A stretch of DNA of 64,000 nt from Alphaproteobacteria bacterium (GCA_017403085.1 JAFQOQ010000009.1:2096-66095); one strand, 5' to 3'. Shown: positions 1 through 10,210, numbered from the stretch's first letter. Notes: generated from the sequence alone by a model not told the origin. A program made the numbers and translations.

Positions 1-749
1 CCGCCGCAACACGCGCACGTGTCGAAGAATTATTGGCACCTAAAAAGCCGGTCAGCAACCTGTGGTTTGAGATGACACCACGTACAGAATACGTGGCACA
101 AGATATGACAACGGTTGTAGAAGAAGTGTTTGGCGAAGACCGCGCCACAGATGACGGTTGTCCATTTGAAACCGAAACAGAATGTGAAATTTGGCGCAGA
201 AAACCAATCGTGCGCGAGACTGTATCACCACGCAGTCCAAAATTGCGCAATGCCAGCGTTAATGAATTTATTCATGCCGCCGATTGCAATATGCATATCA
301 CTGCAAATGAAACAGTATCTGCACCATTGCTGGACAGATATAAAATGTTAATGCGCAGTGCCCAGGCATGCTGTACAGATGGTATGGCGTATGCGTTACG
401 TCAGGCCGGTGCCAGCGATGGATTGGTATATAAGTTCTTGGCAGATGACGCGAATTTCTATGGATTTGGATCACGTTGCCTGATGATGACAGATTATGAT
501 TTGGATTCACGATATCCAAATACAGCAACCGCAGTTGTTGCCGCAGACGTGCGCAATGGGTGTCTGTGTCGCGGTCGTCAATGGTTCCAGGCGATGTTGG
601 CACCATTCCAACAGGTTTATAGCGCGTTGCCAGAATTTAAAGACGCACAGTTTAATTATACATACAAAGATGGCCTGCAACGTGAAATTACGGTATCTGT
701 AAATAACGATGTGCAAAATGTCTTGAAACAACTGGCACAATGTCCATAA
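1..749 (+). CDS. 3' part of a cysteine-rich hypothetical protein, open to the left window edge
   Basis: Track ORF 33..749 begins at an internal TTG. The same frame has no stop back to nt 3, so the gene probably starts upstream of the window. 9 Cys (CC and CxC pairs); no family recognised. A hairpin plus T-run follows. Confidence 0.5.
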   Translation, partial: AATRARVEELLAPKKPVSNLWFEMTPRTEYVAQDMTTVVEEVFGEDRATDDGCPFETETECEIWRRKPIVRETVSPRSPKLRNASVNEFIHAADCNMHITANETVSAPLLDRYKMLMRSAQACCTDGMAYALRQAGASDGLVYKFLADDANFYGFGSRCLMMTDYDLDSRYPNTATAVVAADVRNGCLCRGRQWFQAMLAPFQQVYSALPEFKDAQFNYTYKDGLQREITVSVNNDVQNVLKQLAQCP

Positions 750-751
750 GG

Positions 752-774
752 AACGCCCCACGGGGCGTTTTTTA
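752..774 (+). terminator. Intrinsic terminator
   Basis: AACGCCCC-A-CGGGGCGTT hairpin followed by TTTTTT, directly after the stop at 749. Confidence 0.7.
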
Positions 775-805
775 ATGGCATAACATGGTGGGTAGTGTCA
801 GGAAA

Positions 806-1085
806 ATAAAAAGGCATAATAAGACTGGATTGCCACGCTGCGCTCGCAATGACAAGAGTTATTAAGTGCCGAGGGTGTGGGTGGGGGTGCGTAAGTAAAA
901 AGCATAATAAGACTGGATTGCCACGGCTTCGCCTCGCAATGACAAAAGGGACGAAGAGCCGAGGGTGTTGGTGGTGGATTTCTAGGCCCCTATCCCTGCC
1001 TGCGCAGGGATGACAAAGTATTTTTGCGGGGCGCTTAAACCATGCGATGACAAAGGGGTATGAAGGGGCGAGGGATTGGATGCAG
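806..1085. repeat. Tandem ~89-bp repeats plus short palindromic units, each ending in ATGACAA
   Basis: GCATAATAAGACTGGATTGCCACG..CGCAATGACAA..GCCGAGGGTGT.GGTGG occurs at 813 and again at 902 (period 89 bp). A degenerate third copy lies at about 1040-1085. Perfect palindrome TCCCTGC-CTGC-GCAGGGA at 993-1010. ATGACAA at 849, 939, 1010 and 1047. Confidence 0.75.
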
Positions 1086-1097
1086 GTATCTGGCAAG

Positions 1098-1122
1098 AAA
1101 AAACGCCCCGTGGGGCGTTTTT
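1098..1122 (-). terminator. Bidirectional intrinsic terminator serving the 1136..4300 gene
   Basis: AAAAAACGCCCCGTGGGGCGTTTTT: GC hairpin flanked by an A-run and a T-run, 14 nt beyond the stop. Confidence 0.65.
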
Positions 1123-1135
1123 ATTTACATTTGGA

Positions 1136-4100
1136 TTATTCCATGCTGGTCGATACCACTTCACCATAGGTAGCCACTTCTTCGCCACCGATATAGCAGT
1201 GAATCTTGGACCCGACGTTATCCATGAAATCTTGGATGGCGTCGCGCTTTGCCTTATCAACCGCAGAATCCATGATGCTGTCTGTGACAGTGTATGCCAA
1301 TGCACCACCCGCCACCGCAGTCACCGCCGCGCCGATACCCGCCGCTGCGCCCTTGCTTAGGCCCTTTTTCTTTTCTTCTGTTTCTGAAGATTCCGTAGCG
1401 ATTTCGCATTTTGCCTTTATCGCGTTCAACACGCTAAGGACTTCGCCCTTTTTAGTATCGTATGCAAAATCTCCTAAACATTTAGTTCCTTCAGCAAGGT
1501 CGGTAGAACCACTACCGCAACGCCAGTTGTTGCCTTTTTTCGTTGCTGTTGTTGTTGTTGTTGCAACGTCTGCTGGCCAGGCCGTTACACCCTTTACACC
1601 CATGCTTTCCAGTCTTTTTACAGCGCCAGTTGCATATGTATGGGCCTGGTTCGCTTCGTATGCATTAAGTTGAGTAATTGCAACGTTTGTATATTCTGTA
1701 CATTGTTTTTTCAAATCTGCAAATGATGTCGTCTTTGCTTTCTTTTTGCCGGTCAGGCCGCCCAAAACAGAACCGTCTTGGATACCCGCACCCAGGAACG
1801 CACCACCAACACCGCCACCCACTGCGCCAAGCGCCGTCATCCAGCCACGGATTTTTGGTTGCGATGCCTCTTTATCAGCGGCCGCTTTGTCGCCGGCTGC
1901 GTTTGCCATTTCTTCCAATTTGTCGCTGGGGATCCATGAACCGCATGTGAATGCATCACCCGCAGCAAAGTAACCAACAGACCAATCTGCACCATTAAAG
2001 ATTGCATCTTGGATTGCCTTGTCTTCGGACTGTAATGTCACGCGAACACGGCAGAAAGAACCATATAATTCATTGCTGGCAACAAACTGTTTTGGTGTCA
2101 GACCCGCCACAGAATAATTTGCTGGAACCTTGTTGGATTTCAGTTTAACCCACATAAATGTTGAACCCAAATCATTCTTGCCAACCAGACCACCGTCATT
2201 TGACGACAGACACAGATTCTGCTGTTTGGTCAATTTTGCGTTATATTTCGCCTGGGCCTCGATTTCCAAATCGTAAATCAGGTCTTTGAATAATGTGCTG
2301 GCCGCCTGGGATTCAACATAGGTTGTGTATGCAATCATCACAGGTGTGTCAAACACTGCGCCAGTGCTATCCACTGTATAGCATGGGCCCTGGTCCCCGG
2401 TCTTGGACGAACACAGATTGTTGCCGTTTTCATCAACTGCCTGGACCTGGTCGGTGGTGGCCGCCATCTGGGATGTAGAACCCGCATCAATCCAGCCCGA
2501 ACGGACGTTGTTGGATGCGCCCCAACTGGACTGTTCAGATTTATTCTGCATTGCCAGTTTATTGCGTTCGATTGCCAAGTGTTCTTCGCAAACGTTCGCA
2601 TTTTTAACCGTATCCATACACAGACCCAAGACAATTGTGTAATCTAATACGCCGCCGACCTTGTTCATAGATTTATCAAATGCGGTGTCGCCACTGTTGG
2701 TCAAAGATGAATAGATATCCGTACGATTGCGATAGCAATTCTGGAAATCAGCACCACACAAAGAGCGTACGCAACTGGTTGCGACAGATTGACACTGTTT
2801 CTTCATCTGGGCAATCGCAGCGTCACTGTAATTTGTTGCCAATGCCGCGTTCAATGACGCAACAACGCCAATTGGGTCAGATTCTGCGCCGCCATCATAT
2901 TCGGGGAACAAGATATCAAATGCGTCTGCTTGATTATATGTGTATGCGAACGCGCCCGTTGCACTTGGGTTCTGGGCCGCATATTTACAATTTGCATCGG
3001 TATTAACAATTGCCGCGCATCCTGTTTTGATTTCTTCGCGCGTGTAATCATTATTGATAGATTTGTCTGTGGCACCAAACACCTGGGAATAACATGCCGC
3101 GCCAGAGCCAGACCCGCAAACACGCATTGCGCACGATTTGATTGTGGATACACATTTTTCTTTGGCCTTGGTATCAAATTTATTTACCAAATCTGCAATC
3201 TTGGATTTCATGCCAGAATTCATACGTGATGAATAAGCCTCGCTATAAACTTCGTCCTTGTTGTCTTCGTCCAACAATTGTGACGATGTTGGCATTTTGC
3301 CTTCGCCCAAGAATGTGGCATAGCAGTACTTATTGCCGCCAATTGTATCCAAACAAGAGCCCTTGATATAGGACGCAATTGCAGAACTGCTGATTGTAGA
3401 AATAGCATCTGCACCTTCGGCAACCGCAGTACCGTCGTTAATTGCATCAACGGTTGCAGCCAAACTTTCGGTTGCGTTTTCATAACATCTGTATGGGTTT
3501 GCCGCACATGCGCCCAAGATACAGTTATCAACAACCTTGTAACAGGTCGAAACCGCATTTACCGCCGCCAACGACGCCCCTTCGGCAATCATTTCGCCAA
3601 CACGACTGGTCGCGGTTGGGGATACAGATGCACTGGTGCTGGCGGTGCCGAACAATTCGACCAAGCCGTCACTTTGACATTTGGCCAACGTGGATTCACA
3701 TGCAATACGCTGTTTCTTGAATTCAGAATTTGTTGTACATAATTCAAAATCTGCGCCACAAACACTTTCTTTGCGCAGGCATGAAGAATATCTTTTCACA
3801 CAGGTCGCCGTGTCATATTTATTGGAAATCGCCGCACCTGTAATCATTTGACCCAAGACACTGCCGTCGGTGGGGTATGTGTAATCTGTCACTTCGCCAT
3901 AGGAGTTCTGGGTGGCAACATTTGCCAGGGACGCAGTATTTGATGTGCCAAACAGACTGTTTATACCAGATGACGAACACTGGGCCAACGTTGTTAAACA
4001 CTGGGGCATTTTACCATGAAACAAAACCTTGGTCGTGCATTCTTCGAAATTTTCACCACATGTTTCAGCCGTCTTCATACAGGACGTATATGCATCAATA

Positions 4101-4300
4101 CATTCCATATCGCTTAACAGTGGCGTAGTAGTCGTCGATGACGAAGAACCACCGGTCACACCGTTAATGTACGCCGTCATAGTTGGCATGCGACGCACAG
4201 ATGCATTAGCCATAACACTGGGGCGCGCAGTTGCCGCAAACGCCGCAGGTATTACGCTGAATACAGCCAATAAACTAATTGTGTTTTTCAGAAAAGACAT
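1136..4300 (-). CDS. Giant secreted or membrane-anchored cysteine-module protein, function unknown
   Basis: 1054-aa ORF with signal peptide MSFLKNTISLLAVFSVIPAAFA. C-x6-C-x6-C-x6-C-x12-C-x6-C modules at aa 67-108 and 167-208 (exactly 100 aa apart), each ending LFGT(S/A)xT(A/S)S. Three further C-x6-C-x4-C-x6/7-C modules. Two Gly-zipper hydrophobic segments near the C-terminus. Ser/Thr runs. Confidence 0.8.
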   Translation of the reverse strand: MSFLKNTISLLAVFSVIPAAFAATARPSVMANASVRRMPTMTAYINGVTGGSSSSTTTTPLLSDMECIDAYTSCMKTAETCGENFEECTTKVLFHGKMPQCLTTLAQCSSSGINSLFGTSNTASLANVATQNSYGEVTDYTYPTDGSVLGQMITGAAISNKYDTATCVKRYSSCLRKESVCGADFELCTTNSEFKKQRIACESTLAKCQSDGLVELFGTASTSASVSPTATSRVGEMIAEGASLAAVNAVSTCYKVVDNCILGACAANPYRCYENATESLAATVDAINDGTAVAEGADAISTISSSAIASYIKGSCLDTIGGNKYCYATFLGEGKMPTSSQLLDEDNKDEVYSEAYSSRMNSGMKSKIADLVNKFDTKAKEKCVSTIKSCAMRVCGSGSGAACYSQVFGATDKSINNDYTREEIKTGCAAIVNTDANCKYAAQNPSATGAFAYTYNQADAFDILFPEYDGGAESDPIGVVASLNAALATNYSDAAIAQMKKQCQSVATSCVRSLCGADFQNCYRNRTDIYSSLTNSGDTAFDKSMNKVGGVLDYTIVLGLCMDTVKNANVCEEHLAIERNKLAMQNKSEQSSWGASNNVRSGWIDAGSTSQMAATTDQVQAVDENGNNLCSSKTGDQGPCYTVDSTGAVFDTPVMIAYTTYVESQAASTLFKDLIYDLEIEAQAKYNAKLTKQQNLCLSSNDGGLVGKNDLGSTFMWVKLKSNKVPANYSVAGLTPKQFVASNELYGSFCRVRVTLQSEDKAIQDAIFNGADWSVGYFAAGDAFTCGSWIPSDKLEEMANAAGDKAAADKEASQPKIRGWMTALGAVGGGVGGAFLGAGIQDGSVLGGLTGKKKAKTTSFADLKKQCTEYTNVAITQLNAYEANQAHTYATGAVKRLESMGVKGVTAWPADVATTTTTATKKGNNWRCGSGSTDLAEGTKCLGDFAYDTKKGEVLSVLNAIKAKCEIATESSETEEKKKGLSKGAAAGIGAAVTAVAGGALAYTVTDSIMDSAVDKAKRDAIQDFMDNVGSKIHCYIGGEEVATYGEVVSTSME

Positions 4301-4373
4301 CCCCTGACTCCATATTTTATTATTTTATTCTATCATAAAAGTCATGGGATGAAAAGAGAAAAATCGGCTTTTA

Positions 4374-5337: not shown

Positions 5338-5796
5338 CTATCTATAATCACGCCAATCTGGGCCAACGCTGCATTCCGATAAATCAATTATCATTTCGCG
5401 GCCACGATTTTTAACAGGACACGTTAAAATACCCGTTGTTGTCGCCTGGTCTGCATCGCGCGTCGCGTTGCGATACGCAAATTTTAATTCGGTTGGTTCG
5501 GCCACACATGCAATATGCAAATGTTCATGATTCTGTCCATCTGGACCAATCCAAACACGAACACCATAGGCCAGACCATAACACGGAAAACCGTCCAGAT
5601 AATACAATTCCAGACCACGGCCGACCAGTTTTCTATCCTCGACAAAAGTGCCATTATATTCGTTCAGGGTCAGACCCGTCACAGCCTGCCAATCGGTGCT
5701 GGTTGAAAAAATACTGACCCGTGGTTGGGGGGCATCCGCCGCATGTGCAACAAATGTGCAAAAAACCGCAATTGATGCCAGAATATATTTTTTCAT
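5338..5796 (-). CDS. Secreted hypothetical protein
   Basis: Signal peptide MKKYILASIAVFCTFVAHA. No family recognised. Its start overlaps the stop of the zinc-ribbon gene. Confidence 0.6.
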   Translation of the reverse strand: MKKYILASIAVFCTFVAHAADAPQPRVSIFSTSTDWQAVTGLTLNEYNGTFVEDRKLVGRGLELYYLDGFPCYGLAYGVRVWIGPDGQNHEHLHIACVAEPTELKFAYRNATRDADQATTTGILTCPVKNRGREMIIDLSECSVGPDWRDYR

Positions 5797-6317
5797 TATT
5801 TTTTCCCTGTGTTTTGTCCGTCTGCCAAAATGGCGCTGATTTTTTTCACACTGACTGGCGGGATGTTTAAAGTATGCGTAAATTCTGCCACCGCACCCGC
5901 GTCCAGTAATGTCACCGTCGGTAAAAACTTTTGACGACCAACCACATTGTTTTTTTCGTCCTGTAAAACAATGTACAAATCGGGCATTGCGTAAATCGCA
6001 TCAGACTGATTCACGATTTTCCCAGACACGACCAAATGTGTCGCACCATTATCATCGGTCGCAGTTTTGTATTCCGTAATACTGGCAACCAGTGGTTTAT
6101 CCTTGTCCGGGTCGGCATGATATGTAAGCAAAACAACCGCGGTAAATATAATCGCCGCAAATAACGCACATAATGATGCAAAAAATTTTAACCAAACATT
6201 TCGACGTGGCGGTAATGCAACCGTCCATTCATGCCCGCAAACCGCGCATTTCACCGGCGTCGATGGTGCGCCGTCAATATTATATTCAGTCTTGCAAAAG
6301 TCACATTTTATTTTCAT
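5796..6317 (-). CDS. MJ0042-type zinc-ribbon membrane protein (DUF3426-like C-terminus)
   Basis: N-terminal CxxC-x15-CxxC (CDFC..CAVC), one TM helix, beta-rich C-terminal domain. Lies 20 nt downstream of the pilin-like cluster. Confidence 0.7.
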   Translation of the reverse strand: MKIKCDFCKTEYNIDGAPSTPVKCAVCGHEWTVALPPRRNVWLKFFASLCALFAAIIFTAVVLLTYHADPDKDKPLVASITEYKTATDDNGATHLVVSGKIVNQSDAIYAMPDLYIVLQDEKNNVVGRQKFLPTVTLLDAGAVAEFTHTLNIPPVSVKKISAILADGQNTGKK

Positions 6318-6337: not shown

Positions 6338-7657
6338 TTATTCTAAATTCAACAGGCGATATTTACTGCGCACACGAGATTGTATTTCTGTGATTGCATT
6401 CATAAAATCCGCAACCGTTGCGTTTTCGTTTGCTGCGACCGCACCAAACAATTGCGTTGCATATGTCGTGTTGTCACGTTCGTAATAAACCGCCAATTCT
6501 GCCATGCGATTTAATTCTGCAAAAGATGCGTCAGATAAATGTGCCGTCTTGGAATCTACATCCCAAAAGAAATTTGGGTTTGTCGAATCTTCAATGCGTT
6601 CAGATACAATTAAACGGGGCGTAATCGACCCAGTATAACCAACCGTTACAAACATTGCATTTATACGCCCAGCAGTCATATCCAGCGACTGATTAATCTT
6701 CATCAACGCCAAATCGTCGTCTGCACTGATGGATAAACCACCAAGCGTCATATTCGATACCCATAAATTTTCTGCCGCGACAGATGAAAATTTGCCCAGG
6801 TCCGCCAACACAAAAGAACCAGAAACCTCCATATTCTTGGCATCTGATGTCATACTGCCTGCAACAGTTGTGGTTTTGGCATCAAAACGCTTATCCAAGG
6901 TTGTACGTGTGTTAAATATCAGGTTTTGCGTTACGATTTCTGGTGTGATTAACTTTTCGTTAAATTCCGCATAAGCCGCATCAAAGAACGCGACATTTGT
7001 GATATCGTGACCGCCTAAATTTAAGGGCGATAACATTTTGGCATCAGACGCATTTATAGATGGGACACGCCATAAATACAAGGCGTTGTCTTGGCTGATT
7101 GTCGTTGTTTCTATAATTCCGTCTGTTGTATCCAGCCCCAAATCCAATGTATCTGCATGCCACGCACCAAACGTGCCATATGCGTGGGTTCCTTCGACAA
7201 ACCCCATACTGTCGCCACCCATAGATACGATTTCGCGCGTGCGCAATGGCGTTATATCATCTGTTGCACGTACAATTACGCCCTGCAATGTTGCCTGGCC
7301 ATTAACGTCATCTGATTTTAAGACACGCAATTGATATTTGTCGCCAACATTTTCAATTATACCAAGTGGCAATCCATAATCTGTCAGATCCGACAATTCC
7401 ACACGCGTGATATTTTTGCCAACCGTTTTTAATAACTTTTCACGATGCGCAACGATGTATCGTTCCAGCGCAACCTGCACTTCGGTCATTTGATTTGTAA
7501 TCGCAATATTTTCTGCGCGTACGACGGCATTTTGTTGATATCTGAACGCAAACGGTATTATGACCGCCGCCAGCGCAATGCTAAGCAGTAATTCAACCAA
7601 CATATTTCCATGCTGTGAATTTTTAGAAAATAAAAAACATCTGTTATTTGTCTTCAT
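6338..7657 (-). CDS. Giant pilin-like protein P3 (PilV/shufflon-N-like, inferred)
   Basis: Prepilin-type N-terminus ..SQHG|NMLVELLLSIALAAVIIPF. YGLPLGI box. YLWRVPS..KMLSPLNLGGHDITN box. Start set at the ATG at 7657, which gives an ATGA overlap with the P2 stop. Confidence 0.7.
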   Translation of the reverse strand: MKTNNRCFLFSKNSQHGNMLVELLLSIALAAVIIPFAFRYQQNAVVRAENIAITNQMTEVQVALERYIVAHREKLLKTVGKNITRVELSDLTDYGLPLGIIENVGDKYQLRVLKSDDVNGQATLQGVIVRATDDITPLRTREIVSMGGDSMGFVEGTHAYGTFGAWHADTLDLGLDTTDGIIETTTISQDNALYLWRVPSINASDAKMLSPLNLGGHDITNVAFFDAAYAEFNEKLITPEIVTQNLIFNTRTTLDKRFDAKTTTVAGSMTSDAKNMEVSGSFVLADLGKFSSVAAENLWVSNMTLGGLSISADDDLALMKINQSLDMTAGRINAMFVTVGYTGSITPRLIVSERIEDSTNPNFFWDVDSKTAHLSDASFAELNRMAELAVYYERDNTTYATQLFGAVAANENATVADFMNAITEIQSRVRSKYRLLNLE

Positions 7658-8859
7658 CGCGATATCACTGATACAACCGTTGTTTTCCAACCACTGTTCA
7701 TCAGTGGTTTAAATTCGTTTTTGCTGACCGGTGTCGGCAGTTTGGCGCGCGCCAATGTAAAATTCGAAAATTGAGGAGGTTTGGTCGATGGAAATATCCA
7801 CGAACCAATCTTTAACGGCGACGTGGTAGACATCAATAATTCGCCGGAAATTGTTAAACCAAAATTATCATAAAAAATCATTTCTTCGGCAGTCACATAT
7901 GGCGTCATTACAGAATTTACAGTAATGCCTGTAAATCCACTGACGGTTCTGGACGAACTAGATTTCATTATTAAATCATTTGCAACATTTACGCTGCCTG
8001 TGATTTGCGCACGATCGGTGATGATGCGGCCGCTGGTTGTATATCCACGCCCATTCATATCCATCGCATAAATATTTCTGAACCCGGAAACATCACCAGA
8101 TACACGCACCGCACCCAATGTCACATCGTCACTTTCGATTGTCGCACCAGATGAAAAATATACCGTGTTCGCCGCAATGGAATCAGATTCAACAAATGTC
8201 GCGTTTGCGTTTTTTGTTTGGGTCGATTTTGCAGTCAATGTCGCAACATTATAAACGTTATAAGAATTCATATCTAAATCGCGGCCCATAACATTTAAAT
8301 TATCTTCGCCAGATGTTCCACGATGCAGGTATTTAGATGTATCTTCGCCGGCAACATCGCGCGATATTCGGTATATCAAATTACCCGCATTAAATCCAGG
8401 CGCAGACACCGCCCACATATCACCAAATGCAACACCATCGTCACCGACGACCGCTGCATCCGAACCAATATGTTTGGCAATTTGCGATGTGCGCAAATTT
8501 GTATCCTGTAAATCAAATGCCAGATATACATCAGTTATCGCCGCACCATTGACAGTATATTTATCGATAAATCCCGCCGTTGGAAAATCTGAAATCGTCG
8601 CCAATTCTTCATCAGCCAATTTGATTTGCGCGGCGTCTGGCCACTTGTCCTGATTCATACGAACAAAATTTAGCACATTATCACGCGTTTCTGTAATTCT
8701 ATGCGCAACTGCAATATCATGTATTGTTTGATTCGTACGGGCAATCTGGCTATATACAAATGGGGTTGCGGTCGTAACAATCGCCATCGCCAGCAATACT
8801 TCCAACATGCTGGCACCACAGGATTGATTGTTAAAGATTCTAGACGTTATTTTATCCAC
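7654..8859 (-). CDS. Giant pilin-like protein P2 (PilV/shufflon-N-like, inferred)
   Basis: GTG start overlapping the P1 stop (GTGGATAA). ..NQSCG|ASMLEVLLAMAIVTTATPF. YLHRGTSGEDNLNVMGRDLDMNSYNVYN box. Beta-strand-rich C-terminal half. Confidence 0.7.
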   Translation of the reverse strand: MDKITSRIFNNQSCGASMLEVLLAMAIVTTATPFVYSQIARTNQTIHDIAVAHRITETRDNVLNFVRMNQDKWPDAAQIKLADEELATISDFPTAGFIDKYTVNGAAITDVYLAFDLQDTNLRTSQIAKHIGSDAAVVGDDGVAFGDMWAVSAPGFNAGNLIYRISRDVAGEDTSKYLHRGTSGEDNLNVMGRDLDMNSYNVYNVATLTAKSTQTKNANATFVESDSIAANTVYFSSGATIESDDVTLGAVRVSGDVSGFRNIYAMDMNGRGYTTSGRIITDRAQITGSVNVANDLIMKSSSSRTVSGFTGITVNSVMTPYVTAEEMIFYDNFGLTISGELLMSTTSPLKIGSWIFPSTKPPQFSNFTLARAKLPTPVSKNEFKPLMNSGWKTTVVSVISR

Positions 8860-10210
8860 AGTTTCCGTTCCCCGACATTAGACATTGCTTGATATCAATT
8901 CTTTTTTCCAATCTTTGCCAATATACATATTGACAGATTATATACTGAGACAATGACGCCGCATTATACGAGCCTTCTAAATCAGCAATCACAGATTTAC
9001 AATCTATGGTTTTTCCGTCATCTGATTTTGGGTCACTTAAAATTTCAAACGCAGAATTGTTGATTCCAGACACCAAAACATCTGGCAACAATGATGTTCC
9101 CGCCGGTCTGATATCCAATATCACCGCGCCCGTATCACCATCATTAAGCGCAGTTGATGTTTGATCACGCATAGTAATATTTGACGCGTACAAATAAGCA
9201 ACATTTATACCGCTGTTTGAACTGTATTCAAGTGTATCTGCATCTATATACACATCCTGGCCGCGCGTTGCGTTCAAATGCGACGTGATATCCAAGCGTT
9301 CAACACTAAAATTTATCTTGTCTGCCACCAGATTTCCACGAACATTCCACTGACCCGGTCCCGTGAAAGATGTACGCCCAGCAGTCATTGTAAAATCATA
9401 GACCGATACATCTTGGGCCGTGAAATTCCCACCATCGCCAAACTTTGATACGGTTTTTGCATTTACAGAATCTGCGTATAGCACACCGCGCGACAAAGAC
9501 AGTGCAGATGCACCATCATGACTTTGAAATACTGCCTTGGCCGTGGTAATTAAATCAATTGTATTGCGAATTTTACGACCAGATTCAACACCAGATATGG
9601 AAAGCGTATTAAACTGGCCCGAATCAAATACACCTTTTGCAGCAAAAACATTACCACCGTTATCCAACACAAAACCACCCATATCTAAATTTGTTAAGAA
9701 ACCGCTGTTGTCCAGGTCCGGTTCGTTACGTCTGACGATGTCTGAATAAATATCCTGTAATTCTATTCCAATGCGCACATTTTGTTCGTCGGTCACACTG
9801 GCACTAAAACCAATACGCCGCGCCAACTCTGCAATTTCTAGTTCAGATAAATCACCACCACTTAGTTCTAAATACGCCGTAAGTGACATTGGGGTTCTGT
9901 GAATTATTAACGCAATATCCTGGCCCAATGCGGTATGCGGAACAAAACCCAACGGCAGACCGTATGGTTCCAATGTGTCACCAAACGCATTGCCAACAAT
10001 CCTGGTTGTGTCGTACGCCAGATTGTTAATATTTTCACGCACAAATATTTTTGCCGCTGTTTGGGCGGTTTCGACTTGTTTTGTTGTACTGAACATTCGC
10101 GCATCAGTATTGCGCGCCGCCATACGTGTCGCTAAAAACGGCACAAACGCAAAAACCAGAGTCAATGCCAATAATGCCTGTAATAAAAAATTCCCGCGCT
10201 GTTGGTGCAA
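8852..10210 (-). CDS. Giant pilin-like protein P1 (PilV/shufflon-N-like, inferred)
   Basis: TTG start 9 nt after AGGAGG. MHQQRG|NFLLQALLALTLVFAFVPF. YGLPLGF box. IVRRNEPDLDNSGFLTNLDMGGFVLDN box. Cys-rich C-terminal tail. Confidence 0.7.
   Translation of the reverse strand: MHQQRGNFLLQALLALTLVFAFVPFLATRMAARNTDARMFSTTKQVETAQTAAKIFVRENINNLAYDTTRIVGNAFGDTLEPYGLPLGFVPHTALGQDIALIIHRTPMSLTAYLELSGGDLSELEIAELARRIGFSASVTDEQNVRIGIELQDIYSDIVRRNEPDLDNSGFLTNLDMGGFVLDNGGNVFAAKGVFDSGQFNTLSISGVESGRKIRNTIDLITTAKAVFQSHDGASALSLSRGVLYADSVNAKTVSKFGDGGNFTAQDVSVYDFTMTAGRTSFTGPGQWNVRGNLVADKINFSVERLDITSHLNATRGQDVYIDADTLEYSSNSGINVAYLYASNITMRDQTSTALNDGDTGAVILDIRPAGTSLLPDVLVSGINNSAFEILSDPKSDDGKTIDCKSVIADLEGSYNAASLSQYIICQYVYWQRLEKRIDIKQCLMSGNGNCG

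Follow-up and report, generated by a model that had tools for sequence, protein, structure and literature searches.

The left end of the window (the whole 64,000-nt stretch of DNA that was analysed) carries, as the original prediction had it, a minus-strand gene for a 1054-aa protein with a signal peptide, which faces the 3′ part of a convergent ORF (Table 1). The protein contains 40 Cys in total, is 100% identical to the representative of its cluster (P0001) and has more than 1000 homologues. Its gene lies among rluD, a gene for a 152-aa exported protein, one for a DUF3426 zinc-ribbon protein and dnaX. In 65 of 82 related loci rluD adjoins it, the gene downstream of the coding sequence is not conserved among these loci, and no conserved secretion, chaperone or immunity gene was found beside it. 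The convergent ORF does have the nine Cys ascribed to its partial reading frame (3-749, plus strand), but the suggested link between the two genes did not hold since this ORF, for which no family match was found, adjoins the gene in only 18 of the 82 loci (10 convergent, 8 tandem) and is an incidental neighbour outside the unit.

Table 1. Features of the locus, with positions in the window and residues of the 1054-aa protein.
Feature	Position	Strand	Remark
TG-extended promoter-like site TTTTCA-17-TAGAAT, 27 nt before ATG	4327..4355	-	consensus match only
GGAG ribosome-binding site of the 1054-aa gene	4304-4310	-	consensus match only
Cysteine-rich exported protein, complete CDS, 1054 aa + stop	1136..4300	-	ORF list
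Sec-type signal peptide, residues 1-22, cleavage AFA/A	4235..4300	-	read by eye
N-terminal motif ATARPSV..RRMPTMTAY, then Ser/Thr tract, residues 23-61	4118..4234	-	
Two six-Cys modules C-x6-C-x6-CG-x2-F-x2-C-x12-C-x6-C, residues 62-120 and 162-220	3641..4117	-	
Three 120-130-aa modules, C-x6-C-x4-C-x6/7-C then C-x9-C pair, residues 246-575	2576..3565	-	
Beta-hairpin (C630/C640), long helix, alpha/beta domain (C697, C750, C786), residues 615-800	1901..2458	-	
Glycine zipper 1, W..LG.LGGG.GGA.LG.GIQ.G.VF.GLTGK, residues 820-850	1751..1843	-	
Hypervariable head, between the two zippers, residues 851-982	1355..1750	-	
Glycine zipper 2, AAAGIGAAVTAVAGGALAYTV, residues 983-1005	1286..1354	-	
Conserved tail ending ..VGSKIxCYIGG.EVG.YG.V.STSME, residues 1006-1054	1139..1285	-	
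GC-rich hairpin, T/A runs on both sides, just past the stop codon	1099..1122		terminator-like on either strand
Convergent ORF, 3′ part of a 425-aa signal-peptide protein with 13 Cys	1..749	+	full ORF C5:1507-2841, beginning ahead of the window

The signal peptide (MSFLKNTISLLAVFSVIPAAFA, cleaved before ATARP) is conserved in the orthologue alignment; it ends in AAFA and contains no lipobox, there being no Cys before residue 67. The segment that follows (residues 23-61) has a pLDDT <50 in the predicted structure, and T24, A25, R26, R37, P39 and T40 are invariant in the orthologue alignment. The Cys residues of the two long modules fall exactly where they had been placed, at 67, 74, 81, 88, 101 and 108 and again at 167, 174, 181, 188, 201 and 208, and the claimed duplication at an exact 100-aa offset is borne out by a gap-free match of 24 identities over 64 positions, against 4.8 on average and at most 14 in 10,000 shuffled controls. 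Each is predicted to form a helix-loop-helix (pLDDT 70-80). The three shorter modules are likewise present (Cys 253/260/265/272, 383/390/395/403 and 503/510/515/522, all invariant), each followed after 40-60 aa by a C-x9-C pair (316/326, 428/438 and 561/571) that had been missed, and a module HMM recovers all five copies with E-values of 1e-10 to 1e-13. Since 175 full-length homologues, down to ~30% identity, retain this pattern, its periodicity is far beyond chance; the 70 closest orthologues (at least 61% identity) all have 38 of the 40 Cys in common.

In the C-terminal half, an AF2 model of which gives the alpha/beta part a pLDDT of 85-91, Foldseek yielded no match for residues 615-800. Both Gly/Ala-rich hydrophobic segments quoted in the original prediction exist (residues 820-850 and 983-1005). 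They are 43-45% Gly+Ala, with repeated GxxxG in a weakly hydrophobic context (consensus LG.LGGG.GGA.LG.G), and their hydrophobicity is at or below the usual inner-membrane stop-transfer level, the median of the best Kyte-Doolittle value being 1.22 over 19 residues for zipper 1 and 1.53 for zipper 2. Both have a pLDDT <50 in the C-terminal model as well as in the full-length AF2 model, which is of moderate confidence (pLDDT 62.7, pTM 0.35). There is no family-wide positive-inside bias around them. Taken alone, the Lys-rich stretches KKKAK and KKKGLSK that flank the intervening domain in the 1054-aa protein itself would point to a cytoplasmic loop, and they count against a surface-exposed head. 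In the tail, C1035 is near-invariant (99% of 175 homologues), and 171 of the 175 tails carry one Cys.

The Cys counts are even only after removal of the 22 signal-peptide residues. The number in the body is odd and becomes even once the single Cys of the tail is added, so that the mature body and tail together have an even count in 171 of 175 homologues. This parity in ~98% of homologues, for body plus tail and for the domain between the zippers separately, argues that every Cys is paired. A DsbA-like oxidase gene is present in 41 of 41 family genomes, whereas the other half of the proposed DsbA/B check was negative, DsbB and VKOR being found in 0 of 41 genomes and DsbD likewise not found. As far as can be told from sequence, Cys invariance, even counts and the universal DsbA-like gene together give strong support to a disulfide-stapled exported protein; the surface or envelope location that was part of the same prediction is something we infer.

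The gene is single-copy and intact in 120 of 121 family genomes sampled (106 of 107 in the genus) and free of stops in every sampled relative that carries it, with no sign of a pseudogene. All the genus and family genomes in which it occurs measure 0.7-1.1 Mb. The host family consists of Ca. Enterousia and close kin, in the order Rs-D84, and the titles of the 231 species genomes name Ca. Enterousia, uncultured Alphaproteobacteria or Rickettsiales of animal and human gut. The gene was found only in these tiny-genome gut bacteria, where it resembles a housekeeping gene in being inherited vertically and held under strong purifying selection. Rs-D84 has been read as a group of partner-dependent bacteria with many unexplained membrane proteins (PMC12306168). 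The initial statement that no family could be recognised stands: there is no match in Pfam, NCBIfam, PDB sequences or Foldseek, a whole-protein Pfam scan with E-values up to 1 returned zero families, and the remote-homology and predicted-structure searches that had been called for matched no known family or fold, adhesins and autotransporters included. No published description of the protein family was found.

The most informative feature of the protein is one that had gone unnoticed, a strain-hypervariable domain (the head) between the two zippers. Where bodies are 97-99% identical between strains, the heads differ in length and share 27-33% identity, with breakpoints right at the zippers, and of the amino-acid differences within the 90% cluster, 27 of 29 and 15 of 19 fall in the head. 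The tips of 169 proteins form 110 clusters, and no relative of the head of the 1054-aa protein was found in 5.8 billion proteins. Body and head are unlike in their synonymous/non-synonymous split (Fisher p = 5e-6), dN/dS being 0.04 in the former and 1.07-1.09 in the latter, with dS raised 2-4 fold, a ratio near 1 that would equally be expected from relaxed constraint. Despite the poor alignment in this region, the C-terminal model reaches a pLDDT of 84-93 and depicts a helical stalk and a variable tip; C867 and C965, which occur in 95% and 93% of the 175 homologues respectively, close the stalk, and C928 and C941 lie in the tip. The head is never lost, remains within 100-290 aa and is as Cys-rich as the rest of the protein (3.3%), its Cys count varying from 2 to 10 yet being even in 172 of 175 homologues and in 98 of 100 head clusters. 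Two candidate explanations were rejected, namely a diversity-generating retroelement target, since the only RT-domain gene of the genome (C28:1326-2918) has no similarity to head DNA and no second copy of the latter was found in the genome, and a polymorphic toxin or contact-dependent inhibition system, since the variable part lies inside the protein, with a conserved zipper and tail after it, and since the downstream gene is not conserved.

Several known systems resemble parts of this architecture. SlyB/PCP and the Rickettsia 17-kDa antigen are outer-membrane ‘glycine zipper 2TM’ proteins (PF05433, PF13488 and relatives), with which our protein shares Gly/Ala-rich GxxxG segments of marginal hydrophobicity, export and a diderm alphaproteobacterial host. 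It is, however, ~5 times larger, its zippers are split by a folded domain, and PF05433, PF13488, PF13436 and PF13441 match neither the whole protein nor residues 800-1054, 800-850 or 981-1054 at E-values up to 10. By analogy, the zippers could plausibly be a helical outer-membrane anchor or form a ring. Chlamydial OmcB and OmcA come from a host-dependent bacterium with a small genome and are, as our protein may be, Cys-rich components of the envelope, which their disulfides are believed to stiffen. OmcB, whose profile (PF03504, Chlam_OMP6) gave no Pfam match, is nevertheless beta-rich, cross-linked between molecules and devoid of a hypervariable insert, whereas the even Cys counts found here point to intramolecular pairing. 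Helicobacter Hcp (Sel1-like repeats) and CHCH helix-hairpins are helix-turn-helix units pinned by regularly spaced Cys, and the C-x6-C pairs would similarly lie on one face of predicted helices; yet spacing (C-x6-C-x4/6-CG-x2-[FY]-x2-C), module length and the presence of six Cys per module are different, and neither a Sel1 nor a CHCH HMM matches. Another likeness, in design only, is to TraN (PF06986), the mating-pair stabilisation protein of F-like conjugative plasmids, in which at least 20 conserved Cys are all thought to be disulfide-bonded and a variable ‘tip’ on a conserved scaffold sets which surface protein of the partner cell is bound (PMC9246713). Both are large signal-peptide proteins, of the envelope in TraN and probably so here, with many conserved Cys that would all be paired and a variable tip. 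TraN, however, is mostly beta with a beta-sandwich tip (PMC9246713), whereas the present protein is predicted to be mostly alpha with a helical stalk and short strands in its head. TraN is encoded in a plasmid tra operon rather than on the chromosome beside rluD, and has a handful of tip classes against ~100 head clusters among 170 proteins here. Relatedness to TraN was rejected, as there is no profile match (Pfam, E up to 1), no tra/T4SS operon and a different fold.

The reading that we favour, and to which we give about an even chance, is that of a disulfide-braced envelope protein displaying a fast-changing head, probably on the cell surface. This would be a Sec-exported, mostly alpha-helical, structural component of the cell envelope, specific to the Rs-D84 family, in which a membrane-anchored DsbA-like oxidase would pair all Cys after export. 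Some 20 disulfides are predicted in total, of which ~18 would staple the conserved body (residues 23-819), one of these tying it to the tail, and a further 1-5 would lie inside the head. The zippers flanking the head would probably anchor the protein in a membrane, in all likelihood the outer one, or drive oligomerisation; body and tail would remain together on one side, opposite the exposed head. Even between near-identical strains, this head would be replaced by recombination and would also change by point substitution, a pattern that is as expected of an exposed contact or recognition surface; candidate contacts are a partner cell, host mucus, phage or antibody. Alpha-helical outer-membrane anchors are rare, and this counts against an outer-membrane location, as the poor modelling of the zippers does against the reading as a whole. 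A further difficulty is the route of DsbA re-oxidation, since no DsbB, VKOR or DsbD was found in a lineage that has been characterised as fermenting, anaerobic and devoid of respiratory chains (PMC12306168).

Some of the same evidence would suit a wholly periplasmic scaffold, in which the Gly-rich segments are flexible or oligomerising linkers and the variable domain a tolerated insert with no role in recognition. The paired-Cys statistics of all three parts fit a single oxidising compartment, and the marginal hydrophobicity and low pLDDT of the zippers are in accord with it. We nevertheless think this unlikely, because there is no obvious reason for a buried insert to be the fastest-evolving, recombining part of a very conserved gene, and because the insert is present throughout, its first and last Cys are near-invariant and its length does not leave its size range. 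It is quite unlikely, too, that the protein acts as a pore former, translocon or similar membrane-inserting factor, released or contact-dependent, whose zippers enter the membrane of a partner or prey, with the variable domain binding a receptor. Glycine zippers are reportedly typical of oligomeric channel formers, and in a profile search residues 891-1040 gave a sub-threshold match to the alpha-pore-forming toxin component XaxA (E 0.16), which is non-significant and was not reproduced by Foldseek. The lineage has been proposed to obtain metabolites from other cells (PMC12306168), but the hydrophobic segments enclose a folded domain of 100-290 aa instead of forming a hairpin, secretion, chaperone and immunity genes are not conserved nearby, and the gene has the single-copy, vertical, strongly constrained character of a housekeeping one. 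An inner-membrane protein with two ordinary TM helices, periplasmic body and tail and a cytoplasmic loop under relaxed constraint is very improbable, for although it would account for two hydrophobic segments of 20-30 residues (zipper 2 reaching 1.5-1.75), for the Lys-rich stretches on the loop side and for the odd-plus-one Cys count of a body and tail sharing a compartment, a reduced cytoplasmic domain would not be expected to be so Cys-rich with even numbers, the charge bias is not family-wide, zipper 1 is too weakly hydrophobic, and 99% identical bodies with 28% identical loops need allele replacement.

In a more specific version of the favoured reading, which we consider doubtful, the protein would be the device by which an obligately cell-dependent gut alphaproteobacterium recognises or docks with its partner. 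The zippers would then cross the outer membrane, and a rigid periplasmic rod of 18 disulfides, formed by DsbA without DsbB, VKOR or quinones, would couple the disulfide-closed hypervariable head at the surface to the envelope. If true, this would be a helical scaffold of a new kind for display at the outer membrane, and it would point to an unknown disulfide-generating pathway in an anaerobe.

The paralogue check that had been advised revealed at least eight other large, Cys-rich exported proteins in the genome, which share one six-Cys module (N-x-YD-x3-C-x6-C-x6-CG-x-D[FY]-x2-C-x12-C-x6-C) with the 1054-aa protein. All six Cys of module 2 are in register with those of eight paralogues (hhalign probability 91%, E 1e-6), blastp identities are 34-48% over 29-50 aa, and a profile search of the same genome retrieved three paralogues at E 1e-5 to 5e-4. 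The protein thus has the six-Cys module after a Sec signal peptide by which the lineage-specific Enterousia Cys-rich exported superfamily is defined, but it has no detectable similarity to the paralogues elsewhere, and its gene is single-copy and forms an orthologue group apart, with five copies of the module and a head-and-tail unit of its own. The paralogues carry C-x3-Y-x2-CMDxFC N-terminal motifs and likewise begin with a signal peptide, after which comes a basic Ser/Thr/Arg tract, and one of them also ends in a glycine zipper.

The ORF under study is uninterrupted, and its architecture had been read correctly in the original prediction. A scripted count places the 40 Cys precisely where they had been reported, including two six-Cys modules (residues 67-108 and 167-208, spacing C-x6-C-x6-C-x6-C-x12-C-x6-C) and three shorter C-x6-C-x4-C-x6/7-C modules starting at residues 253, 383 and 503, and the signal peptide is as stated, as are the two Gly/Ala-rich hydrophobic segments. 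In an ungapped alignment, with the second module shifted by exactly 100 residues, the long modules agree at 24 of 64 positions; 10,000 shuffles averaged 4.8 identities and never exceeded 14. What had been overlooked is a C-x9-C pair found 40-60 residues after each short module (316/326, 428/438 and 561/571), so that the body (residues 23-819) consists of five six-Cys units, a C630/C640 hairpin and three more Cys. It is followed by a first glycine zipper (820-850), a head (851-982), a second zipper (983-1005) and a C-tail (1006-1054).

That no family could be recognized also holds, since the whole protein has no match in Pfam and NCBIfam at E values up to 1. The zipper, tail and module segments have none at E values up to 10, and a profile of 70 orthologues run against PDB sequences returned sub-threshold matches only, the best meaningful-looking one being XaxA (E 0.16). 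An AlphaFold2 model built with the 70-orthologue alignment is mostly helical (mean pLDDT 62.7, pTM 0.35, residues 60-390 at 70-85), and a second model, covering residues 606-1054 (45 sequences), has a pLDDT of 72.8, rising to 85-91 in an alpha/beta domain and to 84-93 in the head. When both models were compared with the PDB, and the full model with BFVD, the Foldseek matches were generic helical hairpins, none of them below E 0.1. No solved fold corresponds to the modules or to the head. No paper on this protein family was found in the literature, including in a search pairing Rs-D84 with cysteine-rich. Because neither sequence nor fold gives the family a known relative, we rate it as a new kind of protein, the function of which we infer.

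Relatives occur in 231 species-level genomes of gut origin (ruminant, chicken, rabbit and human), assigned to Candidatus Enterousia, uncultured Alphaproteobacteria and uncultured Rickettsiales. When HMMER was run exhaustively on 1.84 billion representative proteins, only 232 clusters were recovered. At the 90% level more than 1000 sequences match, and all those that are named are 'hypothetical'. Short proteins matching residues 944-1054 only were rejected as a separate family, as they appear to be truncated gene calls. Among genomes sampled from the order, 106 of 107 in the genus and 120 of 121 in the family carry one stop-free copy of the gene, while matches in other families were limited to 3 of 29 genomes, all weak. 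The source assembly is 1.04 Mb, 42% GC and 92% complete, and genomes of the gene-carrying family all measure 0.7-1.1 Mb. Candidatus Enterousia and its relatives, common in human, ruminant and bird guts, have no known synthesis of most building blocks. Rs-D84/Enterousia have been described as fermenters that lack respiratory chains and most biosynthesis and that probably rely on other cells (PMC12306168).

The pattern of Cys conservation is informative about pairing. Of the 40 Cys, 38 never vary among the 70 orthologues (61-86% identity). In 175 full-length homologues, cut at the landmarks of the query to count Cys in each part, the head has 2, 4, 6, 8 or 10 Cys, an even number in 172 of them and in 98 of 100 when each head cluster (40% identity) is reduced to one representative. 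The mature body has an odd number, mostly 35, and the C-tail exactly one in 171 of 175; once the signal peptide is removed (it contains Cys in 40 sequences), the sum of body and C-tail is even in 171 of 175. Since these homologues are related, formal p-values for such parity would overstate the case. Parity that is maintained while Cys numbers change is nevertheless hard to explain unless all Cys are disulfide-bonded, and it implies that a single disulfide would join body to tail and that the head would be self-contained. An attempt to identify disulfide partners by co-loss of Cys was uninformative, because only whole modules are lost.

The Dsb check proposed with the original prediction gave a mixed result: a membrane-anchored DsbA-like oxidoreductase (CPYC, two N-terminal hydrophobic helices) is encoded outside the window, among the Cys-rich paralogue genes discussed below, and in 41 of 41 family genomes at least 95% complete and 149 of 151 of the order, but DsbB and VKOR were found in none of the 41 family genomes, nor DsbD in the source genome. 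This gene was rejected as a marker tied to the studied gene, being order-wide and present in families without the latter. The family thus has a DsbA-like oxidase, although in an anaerobe that ferments and lacks quinones its re-oxidation is unexplained. Each molecule would have about 20 disulfides, and the paralogues many more, in a lineage that lacks DsbB, VKOR and a respiratory quinone system to recycle the DsbA-like protein.

Variation is concentrated in the head. Conservation per 50-residue block is 0.6-0.84 in the body, 0.13-0.32 across residues 851-1000 and 0.92 in the last four residues. Among 120 homologues, pairs with 97-99% identical bodies have heads that are just 27-33% identical and of unequal length (e.g. 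P0071/P0092, P0073/P0091 and P0022/P0023), the switch points lying directly after GGLTGKKK and directly before KGLSKG-AAAGIG at the start of zipper 2. At 50% identity, the tips of 169 proteins form 110 clusters; the head encoded in the source genome has no relative at E 1e-3 in 5.8 billion proteins, and the nearest orthologue of the studied protein shows 93% identity over the body but 33% over the head. The first and last Cys of the head, C867 and C965, never vary among the 70 closest orthologues and are kept in 95% and 93% of all 175 homologues; they sit on two predicted stalk helices, with the variable Cys pairs on the tip strands.

Within a 90% cluster, the head accounts for 27 of 29 amino-acid differences in one comparison and for 15 of 19 in another. 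DNA of three alleles of that cluster gave dN/dS (Nei-Gojobori) of 0.04-0.07 for the body versus 1.07-1.09 for the head, and the synonymous/non-synonymous split differs between the two (Fisher p = 5e-6). The high dN/dS indicates that the head at the least tolerates amino-acid changes and that these are probably favoured. Head dS is 2-4 times that of the body, which together with the length changes indicates that diverged alleles were imported by recombination. There is little sign of head exchange between distant lineages, head identity rarely exceeding body identity. A diversity-generating retroelement (DGR) or silent cassette was rejected as the source of variation, since the only reverse transcriptase (RT) gene has no head-matching repeat and the genome contains no second copy of the head DNA. 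That RT gene, on contig C28, encodes 531 aa with a PF00078 domain (E 4.5e-16) and lacks a template/variable repeat; copies of 1.4-2 kb of neighbouring DNA, 78-89% identical, occur on C10 and C19, suggesting a mobile or defence element.

Our reading, of middling confidence, is that the protein belongs to the envelope, is braced by disulfides and displays a head that is exposed and diversifying. With a frozen body and a small head replaced from strain to strain, a 3-kb gene kept in nearly all family genomes is a prime candidate for an interface with a partner, host or phage. How the head would be displayed is more doubtful. The zippers are weakly hydrophobic (median best 19-residue Kyte-Doolittle 1.22 and 1.53, Gly+Ala 43-45%) and are modelled at pLDDT below 50 in both models; Lys-rich stretches flank the head in the studied protein, but no positive-inside bias is seen family-wide. 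Tentatively, the zippers could span the outer membrane or be embedded in it and leave the head on the outside, a possibility to which we give rather less credence and which accounts best for hypervariability being confined to the head. The alternative remains that all parts lie in one compartment, the zippers serving oligomerization, which accounts less well for that restriction. An inner-membrane hairpin with a cytoplasmic loop is disfavoured, because body and tail would share one oxidizing compartment and the head would be in an oxidizing one too.

In design, the nearest likeness to such a braced protein with a displayed head is TraN of F-like plasmids, a Cys-rich envelope protein with all its Cys paired, in which a conserved scaffold carries a variable tip choosing the surface protein of the partner (PMC9246713). 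Membership of TraN itself was rejected, as the studied protein has neither its profile, its operon context nor its beta fold. The zippers recall the glycine-zipper outer-membrane lipoproteins SlyB/PCP and the Rickettsia 17-kDa antigen; unlike these, the studied protein has no profile match and no lipobox, and has a folded domain between its zippers. OmcB and Helicobacter Hcp are looser analogies.

The source genome encodes at least eight other large signal-peptide proteins (750-950 aa, 23-37 Cys, 3-5%) that are mutually paralogous. Most begin with a basic Ser/Thr/Arg-rich tract and have a C-x3-Y-x2-CMDxFC motif in common. Three end in Met (..CEDVNM, ..CEDIQM and ..NKIKM); the studied protein ends in ..STSME. 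A direct phmmer search of the genome links none of them to the studied protein. The orthologue profile matches three (E 1e-5 to 5e-4), and a profile-profile alignment (91% probability, E 1e-6) spans 55 columns with all six module-2 Cys in register; the short module HMM by itself recovers one paralogue only, and Pfam contains no family for any of the four paralogues scanned. The studied gene is thus a separate orthologue group having one module in common with a lineage-specific superfamily.

Coordinates of the features discussed (positions in the window, or in contigs of the source genome where a contig is named)
Location	Strand	Feature
Window 1136-4300	-	Studied gene, 1054 aa
Window 3-749	+	Convergent partial ORF
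Window 750-1135		Convergent intergenic region, 385 bp
Window 752-772, 1099-1122		Mirrored GC-rich hairpins, AACGCCCCxxGGGGCGTT, T/A runs
Window 809-887, 897-977		89/90-bp direct repeats, 82-97% identical
Window 5338-6317	-	Genes for 152-aa and 173-aa proteins
Window 6338-10210	-	Pilin-like cluster, three consecutive genes (450, 401, 452 aa)
C1:10062-12503		Cys-rich paralogue
C1:12866-15148		Cys-rich paralogue, ends in long glycine zipper
C1:15177-17678		Cys-rich paralogue
C1:26227-28584		Cys-rich paralogue
C2:58623-60914		Cys-rich paralogue
C15:37458-40292		Cys-rich paralogue
C20:37361-40009		Cys-rich paralogue
C20:71324-73804		Cys-rich paralogue
C20:7737-12956	+	Candidate gene, open frame of 1740 aa, 132 Cys (7.6%)
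C1:23937-24824	+	DsbA-like oxidoreductase gene
C28:1326-2918	-	Reverse transcriptase gene

The 73-bp gap after rluD provides the studied gene with a promoter-like site of its own (TTTTCA-17-TAGAAT, TG-extended) and with a GGAG ribosome-binding site, and a GC-rich, terminator-like hairpin lies 3' of its stop codon. Its only stable neighbour is rluD, adjoining it in 65 of 82 related loci; at least one genome departs from this, with lptF/G and lptD next to the gene instead. The convergent ORF is Cys-rich as described (nine Cys in the window; in full a 425-aa signal-peptide protein with 13 Cys), but as a partner it fares poorly, being adjacent in just 18 of 82 loci. With no consistent linkage, and given the gene's own promoter-like site and terminator, both this ORF and the upstream pilin-like cluster were rejected as operon partners, and genes for secretion, a chaperone or immunity do not accompany the studied gene in the related loci. 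Between the pilin-like cluster and rluD lie genes for a signal-peptide protein of no family (152 aa), found with rluD upstream of the studied gene in 64 of 82 loci, and for a zinc-ribbon/DUF3426 (FxLYD-like) membrane protein (173 aa). The three proteins of the pilin-like cluster belong to no Pfam or NCBIfam family and have type IV prepilin-like N-termini, in which a G precedes NMLVELLLSIALAAVI, ASMLEVLLAMAIVTT (both with Glu at +5) and NFLLQALLALTLVFA; the cluster lies upstream of rluD, its order unchanged in three related loci (L004, L005 and L006).
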